Source: a virus (lineage: Duplodnaviria > Caudoviricetes). From it: DNA of 31,777 nucleotides. Position 1 is the stretch's first letter, and the number at the start of each line of letters is the position of its first letter. The stretch covers positions 1 through 31,777 of the IMG/VR virus record IMGVR_UViG_3300030376_004713, one strand, 5' to 3'. Both the position numbers and the translations under genes were made by a program. Shown here piece after piece: positions 2,338 to 31,777 of this stretch. The notes beneath the pieces are model-generated. The model saw only the letters and a list, made by a program, of their open reading frames with translations. It made no database searches and was not told the origin of the DNA.

Positions 2338-3903
2338 ATGGAATATAATAACCCAAGTGAGATAGTAAAGGATTTGACCTTTGGTGAACACGCCAGAGAT
2401 AGAATCATGCAAGGTGTAGAAAAACTGTCATCCGCAGTAGCTTCTACGCTAGGTGCTTCAGGAAAATGTGTAATATATGAAGATGCAATGGGTAATCCCA
2501 TCATAACTAAAGATGGTGTTACAGTTGCAGAATCTGTAGTGTTAATCAACCCGGTGGAAAATATAGGGGCTACACTAATAAAAGAAGCAGCTAAAAAAAC
2601 AGTGAGAGAAGCAGGTGACGGTACCACCACCGCAACCGTCCTTGCTCATTCTCTCCTCCAGGAAATGAACGAAGCAGCTGAAGATTACTCAATAAGAGAA
2701 ATTAAAACAGCAGTAGCGAAAGGCCTGGAAAAAGTATTAGAGTACTTAGATGAAAAAAGTATAAAGATAAAGGATGAAATGCTAGAAGATGTCGCTTCTA
2801 TATCATGTAACAACGACGTTGCGCTCGGATCGATTATAGCTGACGCTTATAAATCTGTCGGGGCTAACGGTGTTGTGTTAATGGAAGAATCTGACACAGA
2901 AGAAACATTCAGCGAAATAGTAGATGGGGTTCAATTCGACTGTGGTATAAAATCTCAGCATCTGGTAACAGATAAAGAAAAGAATAAAGCTATACTTGAA
3001 AGCCCCTACGTCCTTATCGTAGCATCTCAAATACCTAGTATTAGAAAAATACAAAGTGTGCTTGAGCATGTTATTAAAGAAAAACGCAGTCTTTTAATTG
3101 TAGCGGGTATGGATCAACAACCTATGGCTGCACTTTTAATGAACAAGGTAAAAGGCAACATCAAAGTAAACATCATTGATACACCCGGGTTTGGGGCGAC
3201 TAAGATGGACACTATGCAAGATTTAGCCACAATAACCGGAGCGCAAGTTATCAATGAAGAATTAGGAGATGATTTAGATTTAATCAATCCTGATGTTTTA
3301 GGTCAAGCTGAAAAAGCAGTAACAGATGCAACATCTACGGTTATTACTATAGATAAAATGCCAGATGAAGCAAAAGAAAGAATAGACCTAGTAAATAAAA
3401 AAATTAAAACGGAGAAGAATCCGTTTATAAAGTCTAAACTCGAACAAAGACTTGCAATGCTTTCAGGAGCTGTAGCAATATTAAAAGTTGGTGCAAACTC
3501 AAAAATAGAATTAAAAGAAAAGAAAGATAGAGTTGAAGACGCTATATATGCTGTTAAAGCAGCAATTAAAGAAGGTATAGTTTCAGGTGGAGGTGTTGCA
3601 TTACATAATGCTTCAGATAAATTAAAAGATAAGCATTCTGCTGAAAAAATCTTATGCAATGCTTTAAAAGCTCCATATAAAAAAATTTTAGAAAACGCAG
3701 GTATATCATATGGCCCTAATATGAATGAGGGCAATGGTATAGATGTTGTAACAGGAAAAGGTGTTAATATGATTAAACACGGAATTATTGACCCTGTACT
3801 TGTAACTAAAAAAGCATTAATAAATGCTGTTAGTGTAGCTACTACAATTATATCAGCTGATTGTATAATTTCAAATATTAGAGATTATGAAAGCAATCAA
3901 TAA
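2338..3903 (+). CDS. groEL: Phage-encoded group I chaperonin GroEL (521 aa)
   Basis: ITKDGVTVA, AGDGTTTATVLA, KKDRVEDA (catalytic Asp), GGGVAL and GIIDP motifs; lacks the C-terminal GGM tail. Confidence 0.98.
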   Translation: MEYNNPSEIVKDLTFGEHARDRIMQGVEKLSSAVASTLGASGKCVIYEDAMGNPIITKDGVTVAESVVLINPVENIGATLIKEAAKKTVREAGDGTTTATVLAHSLLQEMNEAAEDYSIREIKTAVAKGLEKVLEYLDEKSIKIKDEMLEDVASISCNNDVALGSIIADAYKSVGANGVVLMEESDTEETFSEIVDGVQFDCGIKSQHLVTDKEKNKAILESPYVLIVASQIPSIRKIQSVLEHVIKEKRSLLIVAGMDQQPMAALLMNKVKGNIKVNIIDTPGFGATKMDTMQDLATITGAQVINEELGDDLDLINPDVLGQAEKAVTDATSTVITIDKMPDEAKERIDLVNKKIKTEKNPFIKSKLEQRLAMLSGAVAILKVGANSKIELKEKKDRVEDAIYAVKAAIKEGIVSGGGVALHNASDKLKDKHSAEKILCNALKAPYKKILENAGISYGPNMNEGNGIDVVTGKGVNMIKHGIIDPVLVTKKALINAVSVATTIISADCIISNIRDYESNQ

Positions 3904-4144
3904 CTTTATTATAATTGAGCCTATTAAAGAAGAGCCGAAGAAAGAAGAAGGCTTGCTTATAATGGATCAACATGTAGATGACGTTAGGTACTTAAAGGCT
4001 AAAATTATATCAACTGGCAATATGACAGAAGGAATCAAAGTAAATGACATAATTTACTATGATAGAAGGGCTGGGCACGGAATAGAATACGACAACAACT
4101 TATATCAAGTTATAAGACAACAAGACGTTGTGTTAGTCGGTTAA
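3887..4144 (+). CDS. groES: Co-chaperonin GroES (85 aa)
   Basis: MKAINNFIIIEP, mobile-loop-like GLLI, GIKVNDIIYY, YQVIRQQDVV follow the Cpn10 pattern; overlaps groEL by 17 nt. Confidence 0.9.
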   Translation: MKAINNFIIIEPIKEEPKKEEGLLIMDQHVDDVRYLKAKIISTGNMTEGIKVNDIIYYDRRAGHGIEYDNNLYQVIRQQDVVLVG

Positions 4145-5197: not shown

Positions 5198-5482
5198 ATG
5201 GCTTCTAAAAACGCACCATCAAGAAAAAAATCACTTGGATATTACAATAAAGCAAACAAAACCGGCACCGGTGCTAAAGCGGGTGGAGGTATGACAAAAA
5301 AAGGTGTTGCTAAATATAGACGTGATAATCCAGGTAGTAAATTAAAGACAGCGGTAACTACGCCTCCGTCAAAATTAAAAAAAGGTAGCAAAGCTGCTAA
5401 AAGAAGAAAAGCATTTTGTGCAAGATCAAAAAGTTGGAAATCTGAAAGGGGTAGAGCTGCAAGGCGTAGATGGAATTGTTAA
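5198..5482 (+). CDS. Small basic protein (94 aa)
   Basis: GGMTKKGVAKYRRDNPGSKLKTAVT...RRKAFCARS...RRRWNC; recalled as a widespread marine phage module. Confidence 0.85.
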   Translation: MASKNAPSRKKSLGYYNKANKTGTGAKAGGGMTKKGVAKYRRDNPGSKLKTAVTTPPSKLKKGSKAAKRRKAFCARSKSWKSERGRAARRRWNC

Positions 5483-6383: not shown

Positions 6384-6505
6384 AAAACAAGTTTGAACCT
6401 CATATGATGTATTGCAAAAATGGTAAAGAGTATAAAGCAAATACATATAAACAACATTTAGCGTTAAAGAAAAAAGGATGTGGTCACACAAAATCTAAAA
6501 AATAA
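6380..6505 (+). CDS. 41-aa His/Cys-containing basic peptide MKNKFEPHMMYCKNGKEYKANTYKQHLALKKKGCGHTKSKK (not in ORF track)
   Basis: Translated by hand; ATGA coupling upstream and TAATG coupling downstream. Confidence 0.75.
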   Translation: MKNKFEPHMMYCKNGKEYKANTYKQHLALKKKGCGHTKSKK

Positions 6506-6780
6506 TGGCTGTTCGTAAAACAAAATCCGGTGCAAATCTTAAACGTTGGTTTAAAGAAAAGTGGATTGATGTTCGCACTGGTAAACCTTGTGGTAGACGT
6601 AAAGGTGAAAAAAGAGGTACCCCTTATTGTAGACCGAGCAAAAGAGTTTCAAGTAAAACAGTTAAAACTGCTTCAGAAATGAGTTCTTCAGAAAAATCAA
6701 AGAAGATAGCTGAGAAAAAAAGATTAGGCCAACCAGCAGGTAAGCCAAGAAGAGTGTCGAATACAAAACGAAAAAAATGA
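6505..6780 (+). CDS. Small basic protein (91 aa)
   Basis: LKRWFKEKWIDVRTGKPCGR...PYCRPSKRVS; translationally coupled on both sides. Confidence 0.85.
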   Translation: MAVRKTKSGANLKRWFKEKWIDVRTGKPCGRRKGEKRGTPYCRPSKRVSSKTVKTASEMSSSEKSKKIAEKKRLGQPAGKPRRVSNTKRKK

Positions 6781-6935
6781 AAAAGTCAAGAGGATTAGGT
6801 GACTCAATTGAAAAAATCACAAAAAAAACAGGTGTTAAAACAATGGTAGATGTAATCTCAAAAGGATTAAATGTACCTTGCGGTTGCGAGGGAAGACGTG
6901 ACGCCTTAAATACAATATTCCCTTATAAAAAATAA
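6777..6935 (+). CDS. 52-aa protein with GLGD...CGC..RR..LN..FPY motif (not in ORF track)
   Basis: Translated by hand: MKKSRGLGDSIEKITKKTGVKTMVDVISKGLNVPCGCEGRRDALNTIFPYKK; ATGA overlap with the upstream gene. Confidence 0.8.
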   Translation: MKKSRGLGDSIEKITKKTGVKTMVDVISKGLNVPCGCEGRRDALNTIFPYKK

Positions 6936-7595: not shown

Positions 7596-10500
7596 ATGGC
7601 AAAAATAGATTCGTATTCATTAGACACCAGTATAACAGATAACGATAGCGTACTAGGAATAGATTCAGCAAGCGGGGCAACAAAAAGATTTACGATGTCT
7701 AGCATGAAAACATACATCGCTTCCGAAGCTGATATAACTGCTGTAATTGCTGGAACAGGATTATCGGGAGGTGCAACATCTGGGGATGCGACTTTAAATA
7801 TTGATAGCTCAGTTGTAACACTAACGGGTACACAAACGTTAACTAATAAAACTCTTACAACGCCTGTAATATCTTCAATATCAAATACAGGTACTTTAAC
7901 TTTACCAACATCTACGGATACTTTAGTTGGTAGAGCAACAACAGATACACTTACAAATAAAACACTAACGTCACCATCTTTAGGTGATCCAACATTCAAT
8001 ATCACTGAAACAAATATTGCAGACGGAGATAAAATTCTTTTTTTGGATGCAACTGGTTCTTCAGTTACTAAAAAAGAGGGAGTAGATGATTTAGCAGTGT
8101 TATTTGCAGGGGCTGGTTTAACAGCAGCAAACGCAGCATTAGCAGTAGGTGCAGGAACAGGTATAACTGTAAACGCAAATGATATAGCAGCTGCAGCAGC
8201 GCAAACGAGCATAACAAGTATTTATAATTCAAATTTAGCTTTAGGGCATGGCTCTTCGCATGCTAATATAGATTTTAGTACAGATAACAGTATTATATTT
8301 GATATTGACGGAACTTCGCAAGTTCAATTAGATGACGGAGTATTTAAGCCAACAACAGACTCCGACGTTGATTTAGGAACGTCTAGTTTGTATTTTAAGA
8401 ACGCTTATATAGATTCTATCACAACAACAGGTAATGTGAGTATAGGTGGAACCTTAAGCGTTTCTGGTAATAACTTTTCAAATGTAGCAGATATAGGACT
8501 AGATAGTATATCAGCGGCAACTAATGATATAAATATTGCTTTAACAGATAATAGAGCAAATGCATTAACTATAAAGCAAGGAAGTGATGCGTATATGATA
8601 TTTGATACCGCTAATTCAAGTGAATCAATATCAATTGGTACTGGATTAAGCGGAACAGCAATTACTATAGGACATGGAACATCTGAAACAACAATTGGAG
8701 ATAACTTAGTTGTAACAGGTAATTTAACTGTACAAGGTGATACTACAACAGTTAATACTGCAACATTAAGTGTAGAAGATCCATTAGTAATTGTAGGTAG
8801 TGGAAATAATTCTTCAGATAGTGTTGATTTAGGATTATATGGATTATATGATACATCTGGCTCACAAGATTTATATTCAGGATTATTTAGAGATGCAAGT
8901 GATAGCGGAAAATGGAAATTATTTAAAGATTTACAAACTGAACCAACAACAACAGTAAATACAAGTGGTACAGGATATGCAGTAGGAACACTAGTTGCAA
9001 ACTTAGAAGGAACAGTTACAGGTAATGCAAGTGGATTATCATCTACGTTAGCAGTAGCATCGGGTGGTACTAATGCAACATCATTTGCTGATAAAGCAGT
9101 TATTATATCACAAGATAGTGGTACAGACACATTAACTGGTGTGGCAATGAGTACAAATGGTCAATTATTAATTGGTGGTACGAGCGGACCTGCGGCAGCA
9201 ACTTTAACAGCGGGTAGTAATGTTACTATTACGAATGCAGATAATTCAATTACTTTAGATGTTAGCGCAGCAGGTGATGCTTTCAAAACAATATCTGTAT
9301 CAGGGCAGTCAGATGTGGTAGCAGATGGAACAGCAGATACATTAACATTTGCAGCAGGTACCGGAACAACAATAACAACAAATGCAAGTACTGATACTAT
9401 AACTATAAGTGCGGGAACAAATACAATAGAAGTAGATGAGTTTACAGGAAACGGTAGTACAGCAGCTTATACACTAAGCACAGCGGCTGTTACTGAAAAC
9501 AATTTACTTGTATACATGGATGGTGTTTATCAACATCATAATACATATGCAGTATCAGGAACTACATTAACTTTTGATACAAACGTGCCAAACGGGTCAA
9601 AGGTAGAAGCATTCCACATGAGAACGATTAGTAATACTAATTTAGTACAATCAGCAGTAGCTGGCACATTAATGGATGTTAGTGGGGCAACAGGTGATGT
9701 AACATTTAATGTAGATTTATCTGAAGCAGCAGAAGCAGCAATTGCAGATGGCGATTATATGTTATTTTTAGATGGTGGTGCAACAGGTACAGCTAAGAAA
9801 GAAGCATTAGGGGATATAGCTACGCTTTTTGCAGGTACAGGGCTTACAGCATCTAGCTCAGTTATAAATATGGATGCTGCTCAAACAGGCATTACATCAG
9901 TACTTAATACATCTTTAGTGTTAGGTAGAGATGCAGATAATCAAATTAAATTTGGAACAGACAACCAAATAATATTTGAGGTTAGCGGAGGAGACAATGT
10001 GATATTTAAAGCATCCGGTGAAATTGAAGCTACTACAGTAAATACAACTGGAGCTGCAACAATAGGTGGTAATGGATCATCTGGCGGTGTAACTATAAAC
10101 GATGGATCAATACAAATTAGAACAGGTACAGGTAATGTAGCTGAAATGAGATTTTATTGTGAAACTAGTAATGCACATTATCAAACATTAAAAGCAGCAC
10201 CTCATAGCGCAGGTAGTTCAGCGGCATTAGTTTTACCTACAGCCTCAGGTAATTTAATTGGAACTGGAGATACAGGAACAGTTGCAAGTGGAATGATAGC
10301 AGCAGATGCAATAACCAGTGCTAAGATAGCAGATGATGCGATTGACTCAGAACACTATACTGACGGTAGTGTTGACACGGCACATATAGCTGATTTAAAT
10401 GTAACAACCGCTAAAATAGCAGCAGATGCAATAACTGGCGCGAAAATCGCAGATGATGCAATAGATTCTGAGCATTATGTAGACGGTTCGATTGATACCG

Positions 10501-10895
10501 CACATATTGGGGATAGCCAAGTAACTACAGCTAAAATAGCGGATAATAATATTACACATGATAAATTAGAAAACAGATATACTGTTTTAAGCGCATTAGG
10601 AACTGGCACAAATCAAACATTAGATTTTTCAGCGGCAACTACATTTACAGCTACAATGAATGGTAATGCAACTTTTACTATAACTAATCCAAAACAAGGA
10701 CAAGTCGTAGATTTAATATTAGCAGGAAATCACACACCAACTTTAGCGATGAGTGGCGCTACATTTAATAAAGTGGGGAGTGTAGATTACGATGGTTCTA
10801 CAACAAACCTTATACAAATACTAGTAGCAGATGACGCTTCGAGTGAAATATTTTATTACTCAGTAGCTCCAATAGCATCTGATACAACACCATAA
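7596..10895 (+). CDS. Long tail fibre / stalk protein A (1099 aa)
   Basis: Gly/Thr/Ala/Ser/Asp-rich; TLTNKTLT repeats, an internal duplicated block, 10-aa AITxAKIADD repeats, C-terminal domain shared with 11953..13092. Confidence 0.85.
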   Translation: MAKIDSYSLDTSITDNDSVLGIDSASGATKRFTMSSMKTYIASEADITAVIAGTGLSGGATSGDATLNIDSSVVTLTGTQTLTNKTLTTPVISSISNTGTLTLPTSTDTLVGRATTDTLTNKTLTSPSLGDPTFNITETNIADGDKILFLDATGSSVTKKEGVDDLAVLFAGAGLTAANAALAVGAGTGITVNANDIAAAAAQTSITSIYNSNLALGHGSSHANIDFSTDNSIIFDIDGTSQVQLDDGVFKPTTDSDVDLGTSSLYFKNAYIDSITTTGNVSIGGTLSVSGNNFSNVADIGLDSISAATNDINIALTDNRANALTIKQGSDAYMIFDTANSSESISIGTGLSGTAITIGHGTSETTIGDNLVVTGNLTVQGDTTTVNTATLSVEDPLVIVGSGNNSSDSVDLGLYGLYDTSGSQDLYSGLFRDASDSGKWKLFKDLQTEPTTTVNTSGTGYAVGTLVANLEGTVTGNASGLSSTLAVASGGTNATSFADKAVIISQDSGTDTLTGVAMSTNGQLLIGGTSGPAAATLTAGSNVTITNADNSITLDVSAAGDAFKTISVSGQSDVVADGTADTLTFAAGTGTTITTNASTDTITISAGTNTIEVDEFTGNGSTAAYTLSTAAVTENNLLVYMDGVYQHHNTYAVSGTTLTFDTNVPNGSKVEAFHMRTISNTNLVQSAVAGTLMDVSGATGDVTFNVDLSEAAEAAIADGDYMLFLDGGATGTAKKEALGDIATLFAGTGLTASSSVINMDAAQTGITSVLNTSLVLGRDADNQIKFGTDNQIIFEVSGGDNVIFKASGEIEATTVNTTGAATIGGNGSSGGVTINDGSIQIRTGTGNVAEMRFYCETSNAHYQTLKAAPHSAGSSAALVLPTASGNLIGTGDTGTVASGMIAADAITSAKIADDAIDSEHYTDGSVDTAHIADLNVTTAKIAADAITGAKIADDAIDSEHYVDGSIDTAHIGDSQVTTAKIADNNITHDKLENRYTVLSALGTGTNQTLDFSAATTFTATMNGNATFTITNPKQGQVVDLILAGNHTPTLAMSGATFNKVGSVDYDGSTTNLIQILVADDASSEIFYYSVAPIASDTTP

Positions 10896-10899
10896 TAAT

Positions 10900-11358
10900 A
10901 TGAAAGCAATAGAAATTAACGGAACAATAAAAGTATATAAGAAATTACCTAACTCTTGGAAAGGAGTAATGGGCAACTTTAATAAGCTGTCAGATGAAGA
11001 AATAAAAGAATACGGCTTTTATAATGTTGTAACTCCTGATTATAATTCTAAAGCACAAAAATTATCTGATATATTTTGGGATGAAAATAATGAGATATTT
11101 ACTTATACTGTTAACGATATAGAATTTTCGGAAACAGTAGAAGAGTTAAAAGAAATGCAAATCAATGATTTAAAAAAGAAATTAAATTTAAAGCTTCAAG
11201 AAACAGATTGGTATATTTTAAGAAAAGCAGAAAGAAATATAGATATACCCTTGGAAATAACAGCGGAAAGAAATAATTTATTTGCAGAGCTTGAAACAAA
11301 AGAAAACGAAATAAATGCATTAACAACCAAAGCGGATATTGTAACTTATGAGTTTTAA
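10900..11358 (+). CDS. Tail fibre assembly/adaptor-like protein A (152 aa)
   Basis: Follows the fibre; LQETDWYILRKAE...IP..I...R..L motif typical of phage tail-assembly-chaperone-like domains; paralogue of 13103..13582. Confidence 0.7.
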   Translation: MKAIEINGTIKVYKKLPNSWKGVMGNFNKLSDEEIKEYGFYNVVTPDYNSKAQKLSDIFWDENNEIFTYTVNDIEFSETVEELKEMQINDLKKKLNLKLQETDWYILRKAERNIDIPLEITAERNNLFAELETKENEINALTTKADIVTYEF

Positions 11359-11929
11359 TAAAAGATTAATTAGCACAGGGGCGGCTTCAGGCACAAAAGT
11401 TGTTATGACACAAGGCTCTAGTAATTATTTTGCAATTAATGAAACATCAGCAAGTGGTAAATATTATTGGGAAGTATTATTTCTTAGTTTACAAGGGCAA
11501 GCTTCTAATTATAGTACAATGATGTGTGGTTTATATACATCTGGTTATGTAGGTAACTGGTCATTAACAAGAAGTAGAAGTTATTATTCATCACAAGGAC
11601 AAAGGTATAAGGGAACAACATCATATAATTATGGTGCAAGTTATGGGGAAGGAGATATAGTAGGGGTGGCTTTTAATGGTGATGATGATGAAATAACATT
11701 TTACAAAAATGGATCAAGTCAAGGTTTAGCTTTTAGTGGTACTGAAGGGGATAGTAATTTTGGTATTCAACTATCTACTGGATTGTATGGTTATGATGCA
11801 AGAATATTATTAGGTTCTGATGAGTGGACTTATTCAGCACCTTCGGGATTTGGTCAATGGGACGACGCAAAAACTGCATACGAAAATGATGATATAACAA
11901 CAAGTGGAAGCTCTAAACAAGTAGGGTAA
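11348..11929 (+). CDS. SPRY/B30.2-like (concanavalin fold) putative receptor-binding tip protein (193 aa)
   Basis: SGKYYWEV, GDIVGVAF, ITFYKNGSSQGLAF, YSAPSGF motifs; N-terminus MSFNKRLI shared with 13587. Confidence 0.75.
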   Translation: MSFNKRLISTGAASGTKVVMTQGSSNYFAINETSASGKYYWEVLFLSLQGQASNYSTMMCGLYTSGYVGNWSLTRSRSYYSSQGQRYKGTTSYNYGASYGEGDIVGVAFNGDDDEITFYKNGSSQGLAFSGTEGDSNFGIQLSTGLYGYDARILLGSDEWTYSAPSGFGQWDDAKTAYENDDITTSGSSKQVG

Positions 11930-11952
11930 AAAAAAAAATAAACAATTAATAA

Positions 11953-13092
11953 ATGGCAACAACAAAAGTAACAGCTAACGTATTAGCGGACAATTCAGTA
12001 ACACAAGCAAAGCTTGCAGACGACGCAGTAGGTGCAGATGAGTTAGCAGCTAGTGCGGTTGTAACAGCTTCAATAGTAGATGATGCGGTAACAGCGGCAA
12101 AACTAGCGGCAAATGCTGTAGTAAATGCATCGATAGCGTCAGGAGCAGCTATAGATATGGATAAGCTTGATGGTGATTCACTTGCAAGCGCTATAACTGA
12201 CTTTGCACAAGATGATCTTGTAATACTATCAGACACCTCAGATTCAGGTAATCTTGTTAAAATAACAACTTCAAATTTTGAAGACGCAATATTTGGTAAT
12301 ATATCAGGAGATGCTACAGTTGCAGCGGGAGGAGCTTTAACTATAGCAAATAATGCAATTGAAACTGCTATGATAAATGCGGACGCAATAACAGGAGCAA
12401 AAATTGCAGACGATGCTATAGACTCAGAACATTATACGGATGGGAGTGTTGATACAGCTCATTTAGCAGATGGAGCAATTACAGCCGCTAAGATTGCAGA
12501 TGGCGCTATAGTCGCAGCAGAAATAGCTGATAACGCAGTAACTACAGCAAAAATAAATGCTGATGCGGTTACAGGCGCTAAAATAGCTGATGATGCAATA
12601 AACTCTGAACATTACACTGATGGATCTATTGATACGGCTCATATTGCCGATGACCAAGTAACACAAGCTAAAATAGCGGATGATGCTGTGGGAGCCGATC
12701 AATTAGCGGCTAATGCCGTAGTAACAGCGTCTATAACAGATGATAATGTTACGCATGCTAAATTAGAGCCAAGGTACACAACATTAGTAGCTAAAGGTAC
12801 AGGAACAGACCAAACATTAGATTTTGCAACAGCTACAACGTTTACAGCGACTATGAATGGAAATGCTACCTTTACAATAACAAACCCTAAACAAGGACAG
12901 GTAGTTGATCTTATAGTTTCAGGTAATTATACATTAACACTTGCAATGTCAGGTGCTACATTTAATAAAGTAGGTTCAGTTGATTATGATGGTTCTACAA
13001 CTAATTTAATACAGATTGTTGTTGCTGACGACGCATCAAGTGAAATATTTTATTATTCAGTCGCGCCTATAGCATCAGATACAACACCATAA
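11953..13092 (+). CDS. Tail fibre / stalk protein B (379 aa)
   Basis: Mostly 10-aa (A/S)(V/I)TxAK(I/L)ADD repeats; last 112 aa are 99/112 identical to fibre A. Confidence 0.85.
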   Translation: MATTKVTANVLADNSVTQAKLADDAVGADELAASAVVTASIVDDAVTAAKLAANAVVNASIASGAAIDMDKLDGDSLASAITDFAQDDLVILSDTSDSGNLVKITTSNFEDAIFGNISGDATVAAGGALTIANNAIETAMINADAITGAKIADDAIDSEHYTDGSVDTAHLADGAITAAKIADGAIVAAEIADNAVTTAKINADAVTGAKIADDAINSEHYTDGSIDTAHIADDQVTQAKIADDAVGADQLAANAVVTASITDDNVTHAKLEPRYTTLVAKGTGTDQTLDFATATTFTATMNGNATFTITNPKQGQVVDLIVSGNYTLTLAMSGATFNKVGSVDYDGSTTNLIQIVVADDASSEIFYYSVAPIASDTTP

Positions 13093-13102
13093 TAAATAAT
13101 AT

Positions 13103-13582
13103 ATGAAAGCAGTAAATAATAACGGAAAAATAAAAGTATACGCTTCTGTTCCTAATTCTTTTCAATCGCCTACAGGGGTGCATATGAATGCGCTTAAAAT
13201 GTCGCAAATAGAATTAGAAAACGCGGGAATGTTTGATGTAGTAATCGAAGGTGAGTACGACGAAAGAATCCATAATCTTGGAGAAATATATTTTGATTCA
13301 CAGCAAAGAGTTTATAAAAAAGACTTAGTAGATAAAACATGGGCAGAATCTTTACAAGAATTAAAAAAACAAAAAATAAAACATTTTAAATCATTAGTTA
13401 ATATTAAATTAACTGAAACAGACTGGTACGTTGTTAGAAAAGCTGATAATAATACTGCTGTTCCAAGTGATATAGAAACAACAAGATCAAATTTAAGAAC
13501 ACAATCAACAACTGTTGAAGATGAAATAAATGCTTTAACTGAAAAAAAAGAAGTAGTATTATACGATTTTCCTAATATTTAA
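13103..13582 (+). CDS. Tail fibre assembly/adaptor-like protein B (159 aa)
   Basis: MKAVNNNGKIKVY...LTETDWYVVRKAD...EINALT, paralogue of 10900..11358. Confidence 0.7.
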   Translation: MKAVNNNGKIKVYASVPNSFQSPTGVHMNALKMSQIELENAGMFDVVIEGEYDERIHNLGEIYFDSQQRVYKKDLVDKTWAESLQELKKQKIKHFKSLVNIKLTETDWYVVRKADNNTAVPSDIETTRSNLRTQSTTVEDEINALTEKKEVVLYDFPNI

Positions 13583-13586
13583 TTAA

Positions 13587-16500
13587 ATGAGTTTAAATAA
13601 AAGATTAATTGCTTCAGGTCCCGCTCCATTTGTAGCGAGTGAAAATTTTACTACTGTAACTTGGGAAGGAGATGAGCAGGACGATAGGGAAATTACAGTT
13701 GGATTTAAGCCTGACTTTGTTTGGTTCAAAACAAGAAACCAAAGCAATGACCATAATTTATCTGATTCTACAAGAGGTGCTGCAAAACAAATTCGTCCTA
13801 ATAGAGATATTGCAGAAGTAAGTGCGTCGGATCAAATAAAATCTTTTACCTCAACAGGGTTTACAGTAGGTACATCAGGAGATTCAAATCGCGCAGGAAA
13901 CACTTATGTAGCTTGGTGCTGGAAAGTTGGAGGAGGAACTACAAGTAGTAATACTGATGGAAGTGGTATAACTTCAACAGTTCAATCTAATGCAGATACA
14001 GGAATTTCAATAGTTAAATGGACAGGAACAGCAAATGCTTCACATACCGTTGGGCATGGACTTGGAACGACTCCTGATGTAATAATGTTAAAAGATTATT
14101 CTAATACAAGAAACTGGATGGTTCACGTTTCTGCTGCACCTACTGTAAATCAACCATTTGGTGGAAACCTTGATTTAAATACTACCTTTAATACAAACGC
14201 AGGTACTAATGGAGGGTTTGGAACACCTACTTCTTCAGTTATAACTTTTACAAATGGGAGTGGTTCTGTAAATAACATGAACGCAAGCAGTGCAAATATA
14301 ATTGCTTATTGTTTTTCTGCTGTTTCTGGATTTTCGCATTTTGGATCATATCCTGGTAATGGGAGTAATGATGGTCCTTTTATAGAAACCGGTTTTGAAC
14401 CTGCTTTTTTAATGATAAAAAGAACGGACTCAACAGGAAGTTGGTTTATTTATGATAGTCATAGAAATACAAGTGATCCAAGAACAAAATATGTTCAGGC
14501 AAATACCTCAAATGTTGAAGCTTCTGATTTAATAGGAGTTGACTTTTTATCAAATGGGTTTAAATTATTAGATGATTATTCTCATTTAAATGCCGATGGA
14601 GGTGAATATGTTTATATGGCTTTTGCAGCAGACCCTGATACAACTACTCCAACATTAACAAATAGTTTTAATGCAATAAGATATAGAGGGAATGGTTCAA
14701 CTTTGCCTGTAAGTGGCTTAGGTTTTAAACCTGATTTTATTTGGGCCAAAGCAAGAACTGCAACCAACTCTCATTCTATGTTTGATAATCTTCGAGGTAT
14801 AAATAAAGAATTAAATGCAAATTCAGATGATGCACAAGGTTCATTAGACGATGGTGTTTTATCGTTTGATTCTGATGGTTGGACTATGGGGGATAGAGCA
14901 AATTTAAATCAGAATGATCATGATTTTATTGGCTGGGCATGGAAAGCTGGTGATCAACAAACAATTTTTGGAGGGCCTGCAAGAGCAATATATAAATTTG
15001 AAGATAATACCAATGATGTTACAGGAAATCATAATGCTGTTGGATCAAGCCTTACAGGGTATACTTCAAGCGGAAAATTTAATAAAGCGGCGCAGTTTAA
15101 TGGAAGTGATACATATATAAATCTACCTAATGGCTCTTTCAGATACCCTGAATTAACAGTTTCTGTTTGGGTAAAACCTGCAGGGTCAGGACATAGAAGT
15201 ATTATAGAAAATTATGATTACCAAAGTAGCGCTAGTAAAGGTTTTATTCTTAGAATTGATAATAGTACTGATAAAGCAAGATTTGTAATTTATAATGGTG
15301 ACTGTGATAATCCTTATCCTGACGACACAAGTTGTTCAAATGTTACAGCAGCAGTTTCTTCAAGTGCCATACCTACTAATGCTTATACTCATATTGCTGT
15401 TACAATGAAGCTTGGAGAACTTAAAATGTATATTAATGGAGAATTAGATGTTTCAACAGAAACACAAGGTATAGGCTACCATGCGTCTGCTTCTACAAAT
15501 ATAGGCCGAACAGTACATGCTTTTTCCACAGGGGGTGAAGCTTTTTATAATGGAGAAATTGATCAATTAAGAGTTTATAGCGGATGTGCATCAGACATAG
15601 ATATTACTGCTTTATATGCAGAAACTACGTCTGATAATGATGATTTAACCTTAGGAGAACCCGCTTCTGTTTTAATTAGTGCGAATGCTGCGGCTGGGTT
15701 TTCTATTGTCAAATATAAAGGAGACGGTATTGCAGGTTTACAAGTTCCTCATGGACTATCCGTTGCACCTGATATGATGCTTATAAAAAGTTTAGATACA
15801 GCTTTATATTGGGCTGTGTATCATAAATATAATACTGGAGGGAGTGGTAATGGTCATACTGAAAGATTAAAAATGAATGTTTCTCATTCGACAGCTACTA
15901 CATCTATTTATTGGAATAGCACAGCACCAACCGCAACATATTTTACTGTTGGAACAGATACAGACACAAATACAGCAGGAGAAGAATATATAGCCTACTG
16001 TTTTCACGATGTTTCTTCATACCAAAAATTTGGAAGTTATACCGGTAATGGGAGCAGTACAGGTCCTTCTATAACAACAGGGTTTAAACCGGATTTTATT
16101 TTTATTAAAAGAGCTGATGCAACAGAAGATTATAAAATAATTGATGCTTTAAGAAGTTTTGACAATACAATAGAACCAAACGAAAATATTGCAGAAGAAA
16201 GTGCTAACAATTCAAATTTTACACTTACAAGTACAGGTTTTCAAATAGGAGATACACATGGTGATTTTAATGCAAATAATGGAAAATATGTATATTGGGC
16301 AATAGCTCAAAACGTTCCAGCTAATACAACATTAGCAGATAGTTTTGGTATTGTTGAGTATAGAGGGCTTGGTAATCCTAGGAAAATACAAGGGTTTTCT
16401 TTTAGACCTGATTTTGTGTGGATTAAAAATAGAGATACTGATTTTTCACATTCTATGTTTGACACCGTAAGAGGGGCTGGAGAATATGTGAGGCCTAATA

Positions 16501-18290
16501 CTACAGCAGCAGAACAATCAGATTCAACAACTATACAATCATTTAATAGTGACGGTTTTAGTGTAGGTAATGCAGGAGGAGGAATTGGTAATAGTGGAGA
16601 TGATTATATAGTCTGGGGGTGGAAAGCTGGGAATTCTTGGGAATCAAATGTTGATGGAAGTATTCAAACTTTAGTTAATGCAAATACCGCAAGTGGGTTT
16701 TCTATTATAAAGTATAATATGAACCTTACAAGTGGAACGTTTACTTTAGGGCATGGGTTATCATCCGCTCCTCAGTTAATATTTTTCTTTGCATTAGAAC
16801 AATCGGGAAGTACTTCAAATATAGTTTACCCAAATATTAAAGAAAAAGAAATGGTATTAGATAATACTGGGGCTGCTTCAGATAGTAACCCTAACTATTG
16901 GAACGACACAGCTCCTACTAGTACACTAATAACTATGGGTTCTGCATGGACACAATATCATTCATATTATGGCGGAGAAACTATTGCTTATGCTTTTCAT
17001 TCAGTATCTGGGTTTTGTGATATTGATACATATTCAGGTAATGGAAGTACACAAAGTATTACAGGGGTAGGATTTAGACCAGATTTTGTTATAATAAAAG
17101 AAACATCAGCTGCAGAGTCTTGGAGAATGTTTGATAGCTGGAGAGGTGCAACTAAAAGATTATTTCCAAACACTGATGGCGTTGAGTCTACTGCAAGTGA
17201 CTCTTTAACATCTTTTGATAGTGATGGGTTTAGTTTAGGTTCAAGCGCGGGTGTAAATGAAAGTGGCCAAACGTATTTATACATGGCATATAGAATGAAT
17301 ACAACTTTAAATACTACACTTGCTAATAGTTTTAAAAATATGCATTATACTGGAACTGGCGCAGAATTAGCTGTAACAGGTGCAGGATTTAAACCAGATT
17401 TGGTTTGGATTACGAATAGAGATGGTACAACTTGGAATAATATTTTTGATTCTGTAAGAGGGTCAAATGCATATTTAGCTACAAATGCTAATTCAGCTGT
17501 AGAGCATACCGCTAATACAATGGATTCATTTGATTCAGACGGTTTTACTATAGACTCATCAAACGGATTTGGAAATAATAATACTAACTTTGCAGCGTGG
17601 GCATGGAAAGCGGGTAATGGGCATGTAAGTAATTTTGAAGGAACTATACCTAGCATAGTAAATGCAAATACTGCAAATGGATTTAGTATTGTCAAATGGG
17701 AAGGAACGGGAGCACAAGGGACTATTGGTCATGGATTAAATTCCGCTCCTGAAATAATTATTTCAAAAAGAATAGATTCTACTAATAACTGGAATGTATA
17801 TCATAAAGATTTAGGTTTAAGTCATACTTCATATCCTAATTGGTTGTATTTAAATTTAACTAGTTCAGAACAAAATAGTGGCTCAAATGCAAATCACGCT
17901 TATTATCAAGTTCCTTCATCTACACTTATATACCAGCACACAGGTTCAAGTGAAAGTACAAATGTTGATGGAGGTGATTATATATCTTATTGTTGGCATT
18001 CAGTGTCTGGTTATTCAAAAATAGATGAATATACTGGCTCAGGAACAGGTGCTAATCAATTAATAAATACAGGATTTCAGCCAGACTGGGTGATGTTTAA
18101 AGATTATTCAGCTGGAGGTTCTTGGTTTATAGTAGATTCATCTAGAGGAGGAGCTAAAAGTATGAAAGCAAATGATTATGCTACAGAAGGAACAACTAAT
18201 TTTGTAACATTTGAATCAAATGGTTTTAGAGTAACAGGAGACGCTAATGCAACATCAGATTGGGTATATATGGCTTTTAAAATGAATTAA
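13587..18290 (+). CDS. Large repeat adhesin / receptor-binding protein with inserted LamG (concanavalin A-like) domain (1567 aa)
   Basis: Twelve G(F/L)xPDx(V/I)x(I/F)K-type repeats; LamG-like segment about 14979-15623 (YKFE..GKFNKAAQFNG..TVSVWVK..HIAVT..MYING..GEIDQLRVY). Confidence 0.85.
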   Translation: MSLNKRLIASGPAPFVASENFTTVTWEGDEQDDREITVGFKPDFVWFKTRNQSNDHNLSDSTRGAAKQIRPNRDIAEVSASDQIKSFTSTGFTVGTSGDSNRAGNTYVAWCWKVGGGTTSSNTDGSGITSTVQSNADTGISIVKWTGTANASHTVGHGLGTTPDVIMLKDYSNTRNWMVHVSAAPTVNQPFGGNLDLNTTFNTNAGTNGGFGTPTSSVITFTNGSGSVNNMNASSANIIAYCFSAVSGFSHFGSYPGNGSNDGPFIETGFEPAFLMIKRTDSTGSWFIYDSHRNTSDPRTKYVQANTSNVEASDLIGVDFLSNGFKLLDDYSHLNADGGEYVYMAFAADPDTTTPTLTNSFNAIRYRGNGSTLPVSGLGFKPDFIWAKARTATNSHSMFDNLRGINKELNANSDDAQGSLDDGVLSFDSDGWTMGDRANLNQNDHDFIGWAWKAGDQQTIFGGPARAIYKFEDNTNDVTGNHNAVGSSLTGYTSSGKFNKAAQFNGSDTYINLPNGSFRYPELTVSVWVKPAGSGHRSIIENYDYQSSASKGFILRIDNSTDKARFVIYNGDCDNPYPDDTSCSNVTAAVSSSAIPTNAYTHIAVTMKLGELKMYINGELDVSTETQGIGYHASASTNIGRTVHAFSTGGEAFYNGEIDQLRVYSGCASDIDITALYAETTSDNDDLTLGEPASVLISANAAAGFSIVKYKGDGIAGLQVPHGLSVAPDMMLIKSLDTALYWAVYHKYNTGGSGNGHTERLKMNVSHSTATTSIYWNSTAPTATYFTVGTDTDTNTAGEEYIAYCFHDVSSYQKFGSYTGNGSSTGPSITTGFKPDFIFIKRADATEDYKIIDALRSFDNTIEPNENIAEESANNSNFTLTSTGFQIGDTHGDFNANNGKYVYWAIAQNVPANTTLADSFGIVEYRGLGNPRKIQGFSFRPDFVWIKNRDTDFSHSMFDTVRGAGEYVRPNTTAAEQSDSTTIQSFNSDGFSVGNAGGGIGNSGDDYIVWGWKAGNSWESNVDGSIQTLVNANTASGFSIIKYNMNLTSGTFTLGHGLSSAPQLIFFFALEQSGSTSNIVYPNIKEKEMVLDNTGAASDSNPNYWNDTAPTSTLITMGSAWTQYHSYYGGETIAYAFHSVSGFCDIDTYSGNGSTQSITGVGFRPDFVIIKETSAAESWRMFDSWRGATKRLFPNTDGVESTASDSLTSFDSDGFSLGSSAGVNESGQTYLYMAYRMNTTLNTTLANSFKNMHYTGTGAELAVTGAGFKPDLVWITNRDGTTWNNIFDSVRGSNAYLATNANSAVEHTANTMDSFDSDGFTIDSSNGFGNNNTNFAAWAWKAGNGHVSNFEGTIPSIVNANTANGFSIVKWEGTGAQGTIGHGLNSAPEIIISKRIDSTNNWNVYHKDLGLSHTSYPNWLYLNLTSSEQNSGSNANHAYYQVPSSTLIYQHTGSSESTNVDGGDYISYCWHSVSGYSKIDEYTGSGTGANQLINTGFQPDWVMFKDYSAGGSWFIVDSSRGGAKSMKANDYATEGTTNFVTFESNGFRVTGDANATSDWVYMAFKMN

Positions 18291-18811: not shown

Positions 18812-19007
18812 TATTGGAAAAAACTATAAAACAGACGCAATGCACTATGCTGTGGGGCAAGAGGTTTATGGAGGTCATACAATATGTGATATAATAGATG
18901 AAAAAGATAATTATTCTATTTACATAAAGAAAGGTGCGGATGTATTACCATGGAAAAGTTTTAATAAAAACATGGCTATATCTGTTGAGTATAATTTACA
19001 ATATTAA
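18786..19007 (+). CDS. Hypothetical protein (73 aa; start probably MSKLIRKISIG at 18786)
   Basis: Second Met shortens the overlap; TAATG-coupled to 19007. Confidence 0.8.
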   Translation: MSKLIRKISIGKNYKTDAMHYAVGQEVYGGHTICDIIDEKDNYSIYIKKGADVLPWKSFNKNMAISVEYNLQY

Positions 19008-19594
19008 TGAAACCAATTTATTCCTTTTTAATAAAACCTAAAAAAGAAAGATACGACAATACAAAAACGGTTGGAGATAAAGAGTTAATATTAAACACTG
19101 ATATATCCGATCATAAATTTGTAAGTCGTCAAGCAATAGTTTGCAAAACACCTATAGCACGTGATACACATATTAACAGAGGTGATGAGCTTTATGTTCA
19201 TCATAATATATTTCGTCGTTGGCATGATGTTAGAGGTATTGAACGCAATAGTAAAAGCTATTTCAAAGATAATTTATACTTCTGCGAACTTGAGCAAATA
19301 TTTCTTTACAAGCGTGATGGCATTTGGAAAGCGAATCAAGGATTTAGTTTTGTAAAACCTTTATCAAACAACGATGCGTTTTCAATAAACAAAGAAATGT
19401 CATTAACAGGTATTGTTAAGTACGTAGATAATACGAACAACTTTAAGGTTAATGAAAAAATAGGGTTTACTCCAGATAGTGAATATGAGTTTGTAATTGA
19501 AGGTGAAAGACTATACAGAGTAATAAATAATGAAATATCTATACGTTATGGATTTAAAGAAACAGAAAGAGAGTATAATCCAAGCTGGTTATAA
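19007..19594 (+). CDS. Tandem GroES-like (Cpn10-fold) protein (195 aa)
   Basis: Two GroES-like halves: MKPIYSFLIKP...INRGDELYV and FSFVKP...GIVKY...FKVNEKIGF...EFVIEGERLYRVINNEI (compare GroES VKVGDKVLF...EVKIDGEEYLILRESDI). Confidence 0.6.
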   Translation: MKPIYSFLIKPKKERYDNTKTVGDKELILNTDISDHKFVSRQAIVCKTPIARDTHINRGDELYVHHNIFRRWHDVRGIERNSKSYFKDNLYFCELEQIFLYKRDGIWKANQGFSFVKPLSNNDAFSINKEMSLTGIVKYVDNTNNFKVNEKIGFTPDSEYEFVIEGERLYRVINNEISIRYGFKETEREYNPSWL

Positions 19595-24478: not shown

Positions 24479-24796
24479 ATGGGTAAAGTAGTAAAAAACG
24501 ATTGGACCGGTAGTATAAACGGGTCAGCATACACAACAGCTAGTTCTGCTGCAATAACACCAACATCGGGAAATGTTTGGGTAGCAATAACAATGTTATC
24601 TGATACGGTTTTTGATAGCGCAAGCGGGTTGGTTGCAGAAAGTGCAACAACTTATGTTAACACAGAAGGCATTGGAGCAGGAGCTGCAGGCTTAGTCGTT
24701 GACAGTGTAACATTCCCAAAAGGAGTAACAATTTATGGTCGTTGGACTGAAATTGATGTAAACTCTGGAACTATTGTTGCATATCAAGGAGCATAA
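24479..24796 (+). CDS. Small beta-rich protein, probably virion-associated (105 aa)
   Basis: Thr/Ser/Gly/Ala-rich; VTFPKGVTIYGRWTEIDVNSGTIVAY; lies in the head module. Confidence 0.75.
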   Translation: MGKVVKNDWTGSINGSAYTTASSAAITPTSGNVWVAITMLSDTVFDSASGLVAESATTYVNTEGIGAGAAGLVVDSVTFPKGVTIYGRWTEIDVNSGTIVAYQGA

Positions 24797-29180: not shown

Positions 29181-30284
29181 ATGGGACTAATCACACAATC
29201 AGCTAGAGAGTATTACGAAGGCTCGCAGTTATTTACAGGAGATGGATCTACTACAACTTTTACATTAACTTTTACACCATTACCAACAGCAGAGTCGGTA
29301 TTTAGAGTGTTTATAGCAGGCTTAGAAGTTGATGACGACTTACATAGTTACGCTAGCGACACAGGAGTTATAACTTTTACGTCAGCACCGGCAAATGGGG
29401 CTGTAATAAAAGTTTTACTAGAAAATCAAAACACAGGAAATTATAGATATATTTCGCTTACTGATATAGTAAATAACTTTTTAGTTGCATACGTGGGAGA
29501 TGGAAAAATAATAGACCATGTTTCAAAACAAGATATACTATTCCATTCTAAAAGAGCAATACAAGAATTTAGTTATGATGTTTCAAGAGTTGAAAAAATA
29601 TTAGAAGTTTCAATCCCTACAACGCTAGTTGTGCCTATGCCTCAAGACTATGTTAATTACGTAAAACTATCATGGATAGACGACAATGGTTTAGAAAGAC
29701 GTATATATCCTACAAGTCAAACTTCTAGGCCTTCGCAAACAGCATTACAAGACACCGACGGAGACTATTTATATGATAATGATAATTCATTATTACAAGC
29801 AGATAGTCAAACAATACCTTTATTTGAGGGGATTGAAACAAATGCGGCATTAGGTTCTTCAAGCGCAAATGATTATTTTACTCATAATTCAGATTATAGC
29901 GACAGTATAATAGGATTCGGTAAAAGATATGGTAGTCATCCAGAACATTTACAAGTTAATGGTGTATTTGTAAACGATGAAGCAAATGGCCAGTTTGGAT
30001 TTAGTAGTAATTTATCTGAAAAAACATTAACATTACACTATATATCTGATGGGTTAGGTACGGATGCAGAAATGCAAATTCACAAAATGGCGGAGGAAGC
30101 TTTATACAAACATGTAGCTTACGCTATTTTATCTTCAAAACAAAACGTTCCTGAATACATTATAAATAGATTTAAAAGGGAGCGAAGAGCGGCTATGAGA
30201 AATGCTAAGCTAAGACTTTCAAATGTTAAACTTGCTGAAATTGCAGCAACAATGAGAAACAAATCTAAACAGATTAAACACTAG
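29181..30284 (+). CDS. Structural protein, probable tail tubular/ring protein with an inserted beta-sandwich domain (367 aa)
   Basis: MPQDYVNYVKLSW and LHYISDGL motifs; insert FTGDGSTTTFTL...APANGAVIKV near the N-terminus. Confidence 0.65.
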   Translation: MGLITQSAREYYEGSQLFTGDGSTTTFTLTFTPLPTAESVFRVFIAGLEVDDDLHSYASDTGVITFTSAPANGAVIKVLLENQNTGNYRYISLTDIVNNFLVAYVGDGKIIDHVSKQDILFHSKRAIQEFSYDVSRVEKILEVSIPTTLVVPMPQDYVNYVKLSWIDDNGLERRIYPTSQTSRPSQTALQDTDGDYLYDNDNSLLQADSQTIPLFEGIETNAALGSSSANDYFTHNSDYSDSIIGFGKRYGSHPEHLQVNGVFVNDEANGQFGFSSNLSEKTLTLHYISDGLGTDAEMQIHKMAEEALYKHVAYAILSSKQNVPEYIINRFKRERRAAMRNAKLRLSNVKLAEIAATMRNKSKQIKH

Positions 30285-30288
30285 ATAA

Positions 30289-31777
30289 ATGCCAGAAATC
30301 AAAAATACTTTCCTTGGCGGGAAAATGAATAAAGACCTGGACGATAGGCTTCTACCAGAGGGAGAGTACAGAGATGCGCAAAATATTGAAGTATTAAAGC
30401 CCGATGGCTCAAATATGGGTGTTATACAAAATGCCGCTGGTAATACAATAGCTCATACAACGCTTAATTTATCCTCAGACGTAGACGTAATTGGAACGTA
30501 CTTTGATGAAAAAAACAAACGTATATATTGGTTTGTTACAGATAACAATGATTTATCGGCTACAGATTGGTATATAGATTCAGGATTAACTGACCCGCGA
30601 TTTCATGCTATTTACTATTACGATGCGAATCCCTCCAGTGCAACATTTAAAACAGCTAAAGCAATTGTAACTGGAAGATTCTTAAAGTTTAGTAAAAAAT
30701 ATAAAATTACTGGGGTTGCAATGATTGATGATTTATTGTTTTGGACAGATAACAAAAATCAACCAAGAAGAATTAATGTTGTAAAAGCAATTGGGGATAC
30801 AGATTTTTATAATAATGAATTAAAAATAAGTTTAGCTAAGTATGCTCCATATACACCTGTTGTGTTTATGACAGAAAATGATATTAATGGAACTTCTACA
30901 ATGAGTAATGACGCAACACTTGAAAATGATTATATAGAAGAAGAGTTTGTAAGATTTTCATATAGGTATAAATTTAATGATAATGAATATTCTGTATTAG
31001 CCCCATTTACTCAAATAGCATTTCAACATTCTTATAAGTCAAGCTCAGAATACGGCACATTTAATGAAGCCGCGGAAGCTAGAGCATATCAATCTACAGA
31101 GCTAGATGGGATGATAAACCATGTTAACACTGCTGTTTTAGGTATTGATTTGCCGAGCATTAACCCTAATGCTGATTTTGAAATAAAAGAAGTAGAAATT
31201 ATAATCAAAGAATCGGATAGTACTGTAGCAAGAATAGTTGAAACAAAAACATTAACTGATGCTGATATTTCTTCTACATTTTATACATATACTTATAAGT
31301 CTGACAATCCACAAGAAACTTTACCGGAAGATCAAATAACAAGAGTTTTTGATAATGTACCTACAAAAGCAAAAGCATTAGACATAGTAGGCAACAGATT
31401 GGTATTTGGTAACTACTCACAAAATATAACTGTTCCAACATTAGATTATACAGTATCTTTTGGCGCAAAAGGAACTCAAACTTTTACAGGTAATAATAGC
31501 ACTACGGCATTTACATTAACTTTAAAATCTCCTACTACTGGAGCTTCAAGCATTCCGCCAACAAATAAAAATCAATTTAACGTATATATAAATGATGTAC
31601 TAGTAACTTCTACAGATTATATATATAATACGACTACAGGTGTTATAACATTTACTACCGCTCCTGCAACTGGAGCGGCTATAACAGTGGTGTTAGCAAA
31701 CCCTGAATATCCTGATAGCTCTTTAAAACAAAGAAGAACATATCAAATAGGTGTTGTATTAGCTGATATATTTGGAA
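30289..31777 (+). CDS. Tail stabilisation / nozzle protein (P22 gp10-, T7 gp12-like), 3'-truncated by the window (not in ORF track)
   Basis: Translated by hand: MPEIKNTFLGGKMNKDLDDRLLPEGEYRDAQNIEV..., LLFWTDNKNQPRRINV, FVRFSYRYKF, GNRLVFGNY, SLKQRRTYQIGVVL; open to the end. Confidence 0.8.
   Translation, partial: MPEIKNTFLGGKMNKDLDDRLLPEGEYRDAQNIEVLKPDGSNMGVIQNAAGNTIAHTTLNLSSDVDVIGTYFDEKNKRIYWFVTDNNDLSATDWYIDSGLTDPRFHAIYYYDANPSSATFKTAKAIVTGRFLKFSKKYKITGVAMIDDLLFWTDNKNQPRRINVVKAIGDTDFYNNELKISLAKYAPYTPVVFMTENDINGTSTMSNDATLENDYIEEEFVRFSYRYKFNDNEYSVLAPFTQIAFQHSYKSSSEYGTFNEAAEARAYQSTELDGMINHVNTAVLGIDLPSINPNADFEIKEVEIIIKESDSTVARIVETKTLTDADISSTFYTYTYKSDNPQETLPEDQITRVFDNVPTKAKALDIVGNRLVFGNYSQNITVPTLDYTVSFGAKGTQTFTGNNSTTAFTLTLKSPTTGASSIPPTNKNQFNVYINDVLVTSTDYIYNTTTGVITFTTAPATGAAITVVLANPEYPDSSLKQRRTYQIGVVLADIFG

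Follow-up and report, generated by a model that had tools for sequence, protein, structure and literature searches.

Candidate plug-and-socket junction between a fibre-end knob and exchangeable tips in two tandem gene trios of an uncultured marine phage

Short N-terminal segments are an established means by which phages attach a second adhesin to a fibre or spike. The parts of the literature that treat them describe N-terminal peptides of 7-29 residues that dock second receptor-binding proteins (PMC6872550; PMC13352976); such docking is described for the K1-5/SP6 adapter, with peptides of 7 and 11 residues, and modelled for Klebsiella phages (PMC6872550), and the docking peptide of KP32 was tested genetically by deletion and fusion (PMC13352976). 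In gp37-gp38 of phage S16 (PDB 6F45), according to the relevant section, a separate and exchangeable adhesin caps the fibre trimer via its N-terminal part (PMC6851490), while Pam3 gp25 and Mu Tfa are described as having a beta N-domain and a helical C-domain (PMC9608196, in the portion on these proteins). Here we analyze a complete virus record, IMG/VR record IMGVR_UViG_3300030376_004713, whose 31,777 bases are referred to as the window. Positions 7596 to 18290 carry two tandem gene trios, each encoding a fibre stalk that ends in a shared knob, a protein called here the ETDWY protein, and a tip that opens with a shared eight-residue peptide.

We judge it probable, if by no wide measure, that the terminal knob is a socket for the free N-terminal seven or eight residues of an exchangeable tip and that the ETDWY protein aids assembly there or acts as a lock. 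That a plug and a socket join tip and fibre in one form or the other, with either the knob or the ETDWY protein as the binder, we hold to be likely. The original prediction had proposed plug-and-socket docking for this locus, and the conservation of the peptide, its co-occurrence with the fibre end and the exchange of tips behind it all speak for that proposal; the principle, however, is not new, having precedents in K1-5/SP6 and in systems of the KP32 type. All six open reading frames of the two trios were found at the positions that had been given for them, and their parts are as follows.

7596..10895, plus strand: stalk A, 1099 residues, a long fibre that holds a DUF4183-like domain inside, repeats of 10 residues towards its end and a terminal knob
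9408..9584, plus strand: DUF4183-like domain, residues 605-663 of stalk A (E 2.5e-5, below the curated cut-off)
10557..10892, plus strand: knob A, presumed socket, 112 residues, a predicted beta-sandwich of the T4 gp9/gp10 XD1 type (structure model built from knob B and carried over at 88% identity)
10900..11358, plus strand: ETDWY protein A, 152 residues, beta N-domain and helical C-domain, a possible assembly protein or adaptor
11348..11371, plus strand: start peptide of tip A, presumed plug, 8 residues, with an 11-nt overlap with the stop of the upstream gene
11348..11929, plus strand: tip A, 193 residues, SPRY domain at residues 38-135 (Pfam, E 4.9e-11)
11953..13092, plus strand: stalk B, 379 residues, 10-residue repeats and a terminal knob
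12754..13089, plus strand: knob B, presumed socket, 112 residues, folded model with predicted local distance difference test (pLDDT) score 94.9
13103..13582, plus strand: ETDWY protein B, 159 residues, model with pLDDT 94.4 and predicted template modelling (pTM) score 0.70
13587..13610, plus strand: start peptide of tip B, presumed plug, 8 residues, beginning 4 nt past the upstream stop
13587..18290, plus strand: tip B, 1567 residues, four DUF7483 units with LamG (residues 505-673) inserted in the second

The trios resemble the T4gp10-like branching-domain systems (KP32, K11, KP34, K1-5/SP6, G7C and CBA120) in combining an exchangeable second protein, an N-terminal peptide that is short and conserved, and a beta-domain from the gp9/gp10 toolkit. 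They differ from them in that the knob matches XD1, whereas docking in those systems is by XD2/XD3; in that the domain stands at the end of a stalk that is not enzymatic, where theirs branches from a spike that bears an enzyme; and in that the tips are lectin-like or repeat proteins and not depolymerases. Furthermore, a third gene lies between the partners, and the peptide, whose docking is read here from the genes, keeps a fixed register to the predicted mature N-terminus. As in the T-even gp37-gp38 pair, a separate and exchangeable tip gene follows the fibre gene, yet gp38 employs a helical attachment domain, three tryptophans and a beta-helix end, where here there are eight residues without tryptophan and a beta-sandwich knob. 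A glycine-rich domain (Pfam Gly_rich_2) of the kind linked to gp38 is also carried by tips of a sister clade.

Like the genes of tail-fibre assembly proteins, the ETDWY gene directly follows a fibre gene, and its product of about 160 residues has a beta N-domain, a helical C-domain and weak matches to PF16778. Known Tfa proteins, however, vary with the fibre tip that they fold, whereas the ETDWY protein varies while the knob is constant, and a third gene follows it. T4 gp9, TSP4 XD1, the Pa223 knob and PF26209 share the fold predicted for the knob, and the portions of the sources that deal with them describe none as a peptide socket. The module was not filed with any of these systems, since its fold match is XD1, none of its tips is a depolymerase and it lacks an attachment domain of the gp38 type. 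The docking principle is already established, and what differs here is the set of parts: an XD1-type knob, the ETDWY gene and lectin-like tips. No paper on the module, DUF7483, PF16778 or marine flavobacterial LamG/SPRY fibres was found in a search that was thin on subscription papers and supplements.

The start peptide and the exchange of tips

Related modules were drawn from 392 loci (given L numbers below), which were recovered in seven scans; knobs of three subtypes, a single ETDWY protein and two domains from the tips served as queries. The sample is biased to relatives, and three of the scans contributed their best 80 matches each. The 412 knob genes reduced to 288 non-redundant modules, from which 39 were left out because the contig ended before 14 tip residues, leaving 249. 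The gene order knob, ETDWY gene, tip is found in 195 of these, and a strict start motif opens the tip in 189 of the 195 (114 of 120 unique starts). By comparison, the motif occurs in 2 of 1354 other gene starts of the same loci, and in none of the 30 unique starts of DUF7483 proteins that lie behind another upstream gene. As the motif was written after the tips had been seen, only the background count is an independent test. The original prediction had made its reading depend on NKRLI-type starts accompanying this fibre end and the ETDWY gene; that co-occurrence is present, and the reading is not refuted.

Conservation drops past residue 8, where a Gly/Ala/Pro linker follows, and the first eight positions of 148 tip starts hold no conserved tryptophan. 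The first methionine of a protein is usually removed when residue 2 is small, and this rule was used to assign the register of the peptide. The 99 starts with a lead longer by one residue have Ser, Ala or Gly at residue 2, and the 16 with the shorter lead have Ile, Leu or Val there, so that 115 of the 120 unique starts have the same mature register, given the rule; the remaining five fit neither pattern. On this rule, the motif lies at a fixed distance from the predicted mature free amino end, and the peptide looks like a protein-level signal. The gap between the upstream stop and the peptide takes at least 12 values, between -14 and +12 nt, and the peptide is kept through all of them.

A role for the peptide in targeting or processing, whether by export, membrane association or cleavage, on tips that are not parts of the virion is highly improbable. 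Signal peptides likewise start with a basic N-terminus and continue with hydrophobic residues, and the peptide has that appearance. Only two hydrophobic residues follow its basic pair before the linker begins, however, and PHROGs classes DUF7483-type proteins as virion structural or tail fibre proteins. A second class of peptide, moreover, has the same position and register but contains no basic residue.

This second class belongs to modules in which the tip follows the knob directly, with no ETDWY gene between them (54 of the 249). The tips of 53 of these start with a peptide of the MFGQ type (Met-hydrophobic-Gly-x-x-hydrophobic), and one, at L060, keeps the K/R peptide. Most of the second-class tips (48/53) have a glycine-rich body matching Pfam Gly_rich_2, usually followed by a different gene of about 124 codons. 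Since both peptide classes share one register, the peptide points to the knob, which is the sole part common to both. At L002:6841-8963, L003:3911-5244 and L179-L236 lies a sister module, in which a different knob subtype goes with a peptide of the MFGQ type, a tip that is glycine-rich and, after the tip, the gene of about 124 codons. It occupies slot A in close relatives: in L002 and L003 the stalk start of that slot is the same, but the knob is of the other subtype and is accompanied by the second peptide and by the other small gene, and therefore whole ends are swapped too.

The bodies behind the peptide are exchanged. At least five types of body stand behind knobs that are 94-100% identical to knob A, namely SPRY, a single DUF7483, a propeller-like body of about 280 residues (so assigned by eye, with no Pfam match), an unlabelled body of 276 residues and a glycine-rich one. 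Among the 30 modules whose knob is at least 90% identical to knob A, 194 of 435 pairs differ in body class, and the mean identity within those pairs is 92% for the knob, 76% for the peptide and 20% for the body. Conversely, L141 carries a SPRY body that is 97% identical on a knob at 67% and with an ETDWY protein at 42%, the differences in its SPRY gene being gathered in the first ~50 nt. In L224, L227 and L228, a DUF7483+LamG body like that of tip B stands with the second peptide directly behind the knob, without an ETDWY gene; peptide class therefore tracks the upstream genes and not the body. Near-identical knobs with at least five bodies, and the L141 body on a diverged knob, bear out the proposal that tips are exchanged behind a constant peptide.

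Within the window, tips A and B can be aligned at residues 1-14 only (9/14 identical, E 0.013), all other segments giving E of 0.85 or more. The earlier statement that the tips are unrelated beyond their start holds at this level, but SPRY and LamG are both beta-sandwiches of the concanavalin A type. Tip B contains five Pfam stretches of DUF7483, which correspond to four units, the second being split by LamG. The stalks also differ greatly outside the shared end, and the repeats of stalk A match the PHROGs tail fibre families 892 and 28766. For the six genes, the Pfam and PHROGs matches are to SPRY, LamG, DUF7483 and fibre repeats; a depolymerase family is not among them. When solved structures were searched by sequence, the knob profile, the ETDWY profile and both stalks returned nothing meaningful; the sole match for tip B was a LamG-type arabinanase domain. 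DUF7483 bodies are also found fused to a short anchor of their own, and the anchor occurs alone as genes of 59 and 86 codons (L004:882-3602, L008:4943-8866, L094:13863-14310).

The fibre-end knob

The two knobs (10557-10895 and 12754-13092) are identical at 99 of 112 residues and 256 of 339 nucleotides, 49 codons being identical, 50 synonymous and 13 non-synonymous. Non-synonymous and synonymous divergence between them (dN and dS, by NG86) are 0.11 and 2.0, the latter saturated. The shared fibre end with its many synonymous differences was thus as first described, and the purifying selection that had been claimed for it is apparent in comparisons of orthologous pairs from three relatives, in which dN/dS is 0.05-0.10 for the knob, 0.07-0.12 for the terminase, 0.27-0.32 for the ETDWY protein, 0.08-0.39 for the stalks and 0.45-0.47 for tip B.

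In FastTree phylogenies, the B knobs form a clade of their own (support 1.0) nested in A-type knobs. The duplication is judged from these sequences to be old, because dS is saturated here and in the relative L001 and because the B knobs form their own clade; a recent duplication as the source of the 88% identity is ruled out on the same grounds. The FastTree phylogenies were rooted at the midpoint, and we draw no direction of exchange from them. Residues Tyr78, Asp79 and Asn84 of the knob are conserved. A tblastn search of 50,697 GenBank phage records with the knob returned no match. Two candidate members of the family were rejected: in the pelagiphage HTVC202P, the fibre end that lies ahead of an ETDWY homologue and of a LamG gene looks knob-like by eye, but reached 1% probability in a profile comparison, and the fibre end of L165 gave a weak match at 34% probability, so the family was not extended there.

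The model of knob B is an all-beta domain. It was compared with 48,161 chains in a VIA fold search, with Foldseek as a second search. The best VIA match is the Pa223 capsid-spike knob (Z 9.3, root-mean-square deviation (rmsd) 5.0, 99 residues aligned), followed by residues 56-182 of CBA120 TSP4 (Z 7.8, rmsd 4.8, 98 aligned), then the C-terminal domain of a tailspike and a baseplate protein of the T4-like kind (7.6). The top five are all domains from phage spikes or baseplates (Z 7.6-9.3, rmsd 3.4-7.2, 88-101 aligned), below which come CpaA (5.6), StcE (3.9) and unrelated entries at 3.9 or less. The first four Foldseek matches include Pa223, the KP1 baseplate and T4 gp9, with E from 0.03 to 0.35.

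In the section of PMC8825819 that defines it, XD1 comprises TSP4 residues 80-178 and has homologues in gp9, gp10, CpaA and StcE. The knob matches fall on TSP4 56-182, gp9 and the Pa223 knob with middling Z, and XD2/XD3 are not among the matches listed. These comparisons suggest, with moderate strength, that the modelled knob has the XD1 fold of T4 gp9/gp10 and CBA120 TSP4, and its fold neighbours are trimeric fibre and baseplate domains of phages. Among predicted proteins from uncultured phages this fold is frequent (56 BFVD matches at E ≤ 0.001), and several of those proteins are named tail fibres. The nearest ESM Atlas clusters have PF26209 (Phage_phiTE_241_C) in 11-21% of members; the phiTE paper contains no passage on gene 241.

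The ETDWY protein and the contact with the tip

The two ETDWY proteins are 40% identical, in agreement with their description as paralogues. The model has strands in residues 2-77 and helices in residues 84-153. Matches to PF16778 (Phage_tail_APC) at E ≤ 0.1 were obtained for 15 of 63 members of the family, the best at 1.2e-4 and neither protein of the window among them, and in the nearest named ESM Atlas cluster (score 0.91) 34% of members carry PF16778. Foldseek returned nothing for the model at E ≤ 0.001, and VIA matched generic helical hairpins only (residues 79-158), the N-domain being barely tested; this lack of a specific match is no sign of a new fold or of a difference from Tfa. The label of adaptor, used in the original prediction, is uncertain. 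No ETDWY gene stands between knob and tip in 54 of the 249 modules, the protein, with a dN/dS of 0.27-0.32, is far less conserved than the fibre end, and it shows the weak likeness to PF16778.

In 11 modules (e.g. L087:5515-5742), a gene of 75 codons for the N-terminal beta domain of ETDWY only lies between the knob gene and a full ETDWY gene. In pelagiphage-like genomes, such as L177:3840-7820 (HTVC202P gp47-gp51), L178:1-5228 (C72C1), L157 and L159-L171, ETDWY homologues adjoin LamG, SPRY or DUF7483 genes, before or after the tip, and the tip starts differ. An ETDWY gene was found in none of three records with ETDWY-less modules, one of them complete, a weak negative that lacks a positive control.

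Several observations weigh against the knob as the socket. Foldseek gave no match for it in the Protein Data Bank at E ≤ 0.001, and the VIA scores are middling. PMC8825819, where it treats XD1, calls the domain a spacer whose function is unclear and which binds no trimeric partners, docking being by XD2/XD3; its argument is that linkers occupy both faces of the domain, whereas the present chains end at the knob and would leave one face free. Little variation is seen in the A-rich codons of the peptide, Lys5 being AAA in 92 of 100. Linked genes share history, and these very genes served to retrieve the loci by similarity. As the ETDWY-less class is a single nested clade (FastTree support 0.82), it represents about one event and not 53, so the link between peptide class and ETDWY gene depends on about one change and L060. 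Finally, 195 modules combine the K/R peptide class with the ETDWY gene, one module (L060) has that class in the absence of the gene, and knobs near the ETDWY-less clade carry a K/R-type peptide when the ETDWY gene is present (L184, L206, L324). This tracking favours the ETDWY protein as a contact.

According to the explanation built on that contact, which we consider rather unlikely, the ETDWY protein is a true bridging adaptor that caps the knob and holds the basic peptide, while the ETDWY-less clade evolved direct docking and changed its peptide, the second class occurring only without the gene. The protein is acidic, with a mean net charge of about -6, though the knob is acidic as well. Closely related ETDWY proteins serve unrelated bodies (L112, L141, L188, L207) and are therefore not body-specific chaperones; assembly proteins of Pam3 with the same two-domain plan remain on the fibre end, as stated in the pertinent part of PMC9608196. 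Yet both peptide classes have one register, although one of them has no ETDWY gene, and L060 bears a K/R peptide directly behind its knob. The ETDWY protein is also far more variable (50% mean identity in its C-half) than the knob (93%) or the peptide (76%); ETDWY proteins 62-67% identical to protein B sit on knobs only 38-42% identical to knob B; and in phage C72C1 the homologue lies after the tip gene and not before it.

The knob might alternatively be the receptor-binding end itself, with the tips located elsewhere or present as loose accessory proteins. Their common start would then be a relic, left by recombination and by translational coupling at the end of the ETDWY gene. The A-rich, little-varied codons and the many tip starts that overlap the upstream stop would suit such a relic. 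XD1 folds bind glycans in CpaA and StcE and are spacers in TSP4, gp9 and gp10, as the XD1 section of PMC8825819 has it, and the Pa223 spike ends in a similar knob for which the part of the source that covers it describes no partner. We regard this explanation as improbable, since a binding end is expected to vary, whereas the knob is as constrained as the terminase and the tip varies most. The peptide, moreover, survives the changes in spacing and ETDWY proteins down to ~30% identity, the Met-removal register is a protein-level pattern, and nearly stalkless knob proteins of 105-125 residues (L012, L060, L194) are as expected of a connector.

With the knob as socket, each trio would build a virion fibre that ends in the beta-sandwich knob, its stalk presumably a trimer. 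Once the first methionine is removed, the tip chain would start small/Met-hydrophobic-Asn/Gly-Lys-Arg-hydrophobic-hydrophobic, and this peptide would bind the far face of the knob, free as the chain ends there. The ETDWY protein may help assembly or clamp the joint without being the sole bridge. The lectin-like tips (SPRY, LamG, DUF7483, propeller-like and glycine-rich) would then bind host surface molecules, perhaps with the two specificities that the original prediction proposed, and could be changed by recombination just behind the peptide or by a swap of the whole knob-plus-tip unit. A tentative and bolder possibility is that the XD1/gp9-like knob serves widely as a socket, recognising at fixed depth the free alpha-amino end of a seven-residue tag, so that, with an ETDWY lock or the second tag class, marine phages might snap any protein onto a fibre and chain such pairs, through stalk starts on DUF4183-like domains, into branched appendages; such a connector would be minimal, genetically encoded and orthogonal to the KP32-type system.

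Genomic setting and significance

Pfam and PHROGs searches identify GroEL/GroES, holin, terminase, portal, capsid-like, ring-like and muzzle-family proteins in the genome, the two trios lying between the holin and the packaging genes. The capsid-like protein has matches in 85 phage records, the best being Maribacter phage Panino (51.6%), with Flavobacterium 'elemo' phages at 43% and 15 Cellulophaga records also among the matches. Because this protein is nearest to those of Maribacter, Flavobacterium and Cellulophaga phages, the virus is probably an uncultured podovirus of marine Flavobacteriia. The label 'crAss-like phage' was rejected, as its sole support is the muzzle-family match and the capsid is nearest to the phages just named. 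The cultured capsid relative Panino has no knob or ETDWY match within the 41-kb stretch examined.

The DUF4183-like domain of about 70 residues recurs in stalk A, in the ring-like gene (29181-30284) and in the muzzle gene (30289-31776). It is protein-terminal in four relatives (L019, L148, L237 and L300) and internal in 54 other cases, and where it ends the protein, the next gene opens like stalk B (4/4 relatives). The domain and a stalk-B-like start may form a second plug-and-socket pair, by which stalk B may branch from stalk A or from the tail. A trio at L019:8563-11584 has neighbours that, by eye, are of the long-tailed HK97 type (prohead protease, head-tail connectors and tape measure), and for this reason the module may move between virion types.

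Elsewhere in the window, GroEL and GroES are phage-encoded at 2338-4144, and a further gene before the terminase (19007-19594) matches the PHROGs co-chaperonin GroES. Small, very basic reading frames with cysteine pairs lie at 1742-1975, 5198-5482 and 6505-6935 and are kept in relatives. A gene of 105 codons (24479-24796), with the portal and a scaffold-like gene on either side, has no Pfam or PHROGs family match and by eye resembles small beta-rich genes that precede fibres in other loci.

The surprise is limited by the fact that the docking principle is already established. If the knob is the socket, a function would be found for a terminal XD1/gp9-like domain, the role of which is said to be not understood, and the junction would be a very short protein connector. 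Many unannotated SPRY, LamG and DUF7483 genes of marine phages would become readable as candidate receptor-binding tips. The analysis would also name the parts that let abundant uncultured marine phages of Flavobacteriia-type hosts change adhesion, a tag of eight codons being sufficient for a new tip gene.

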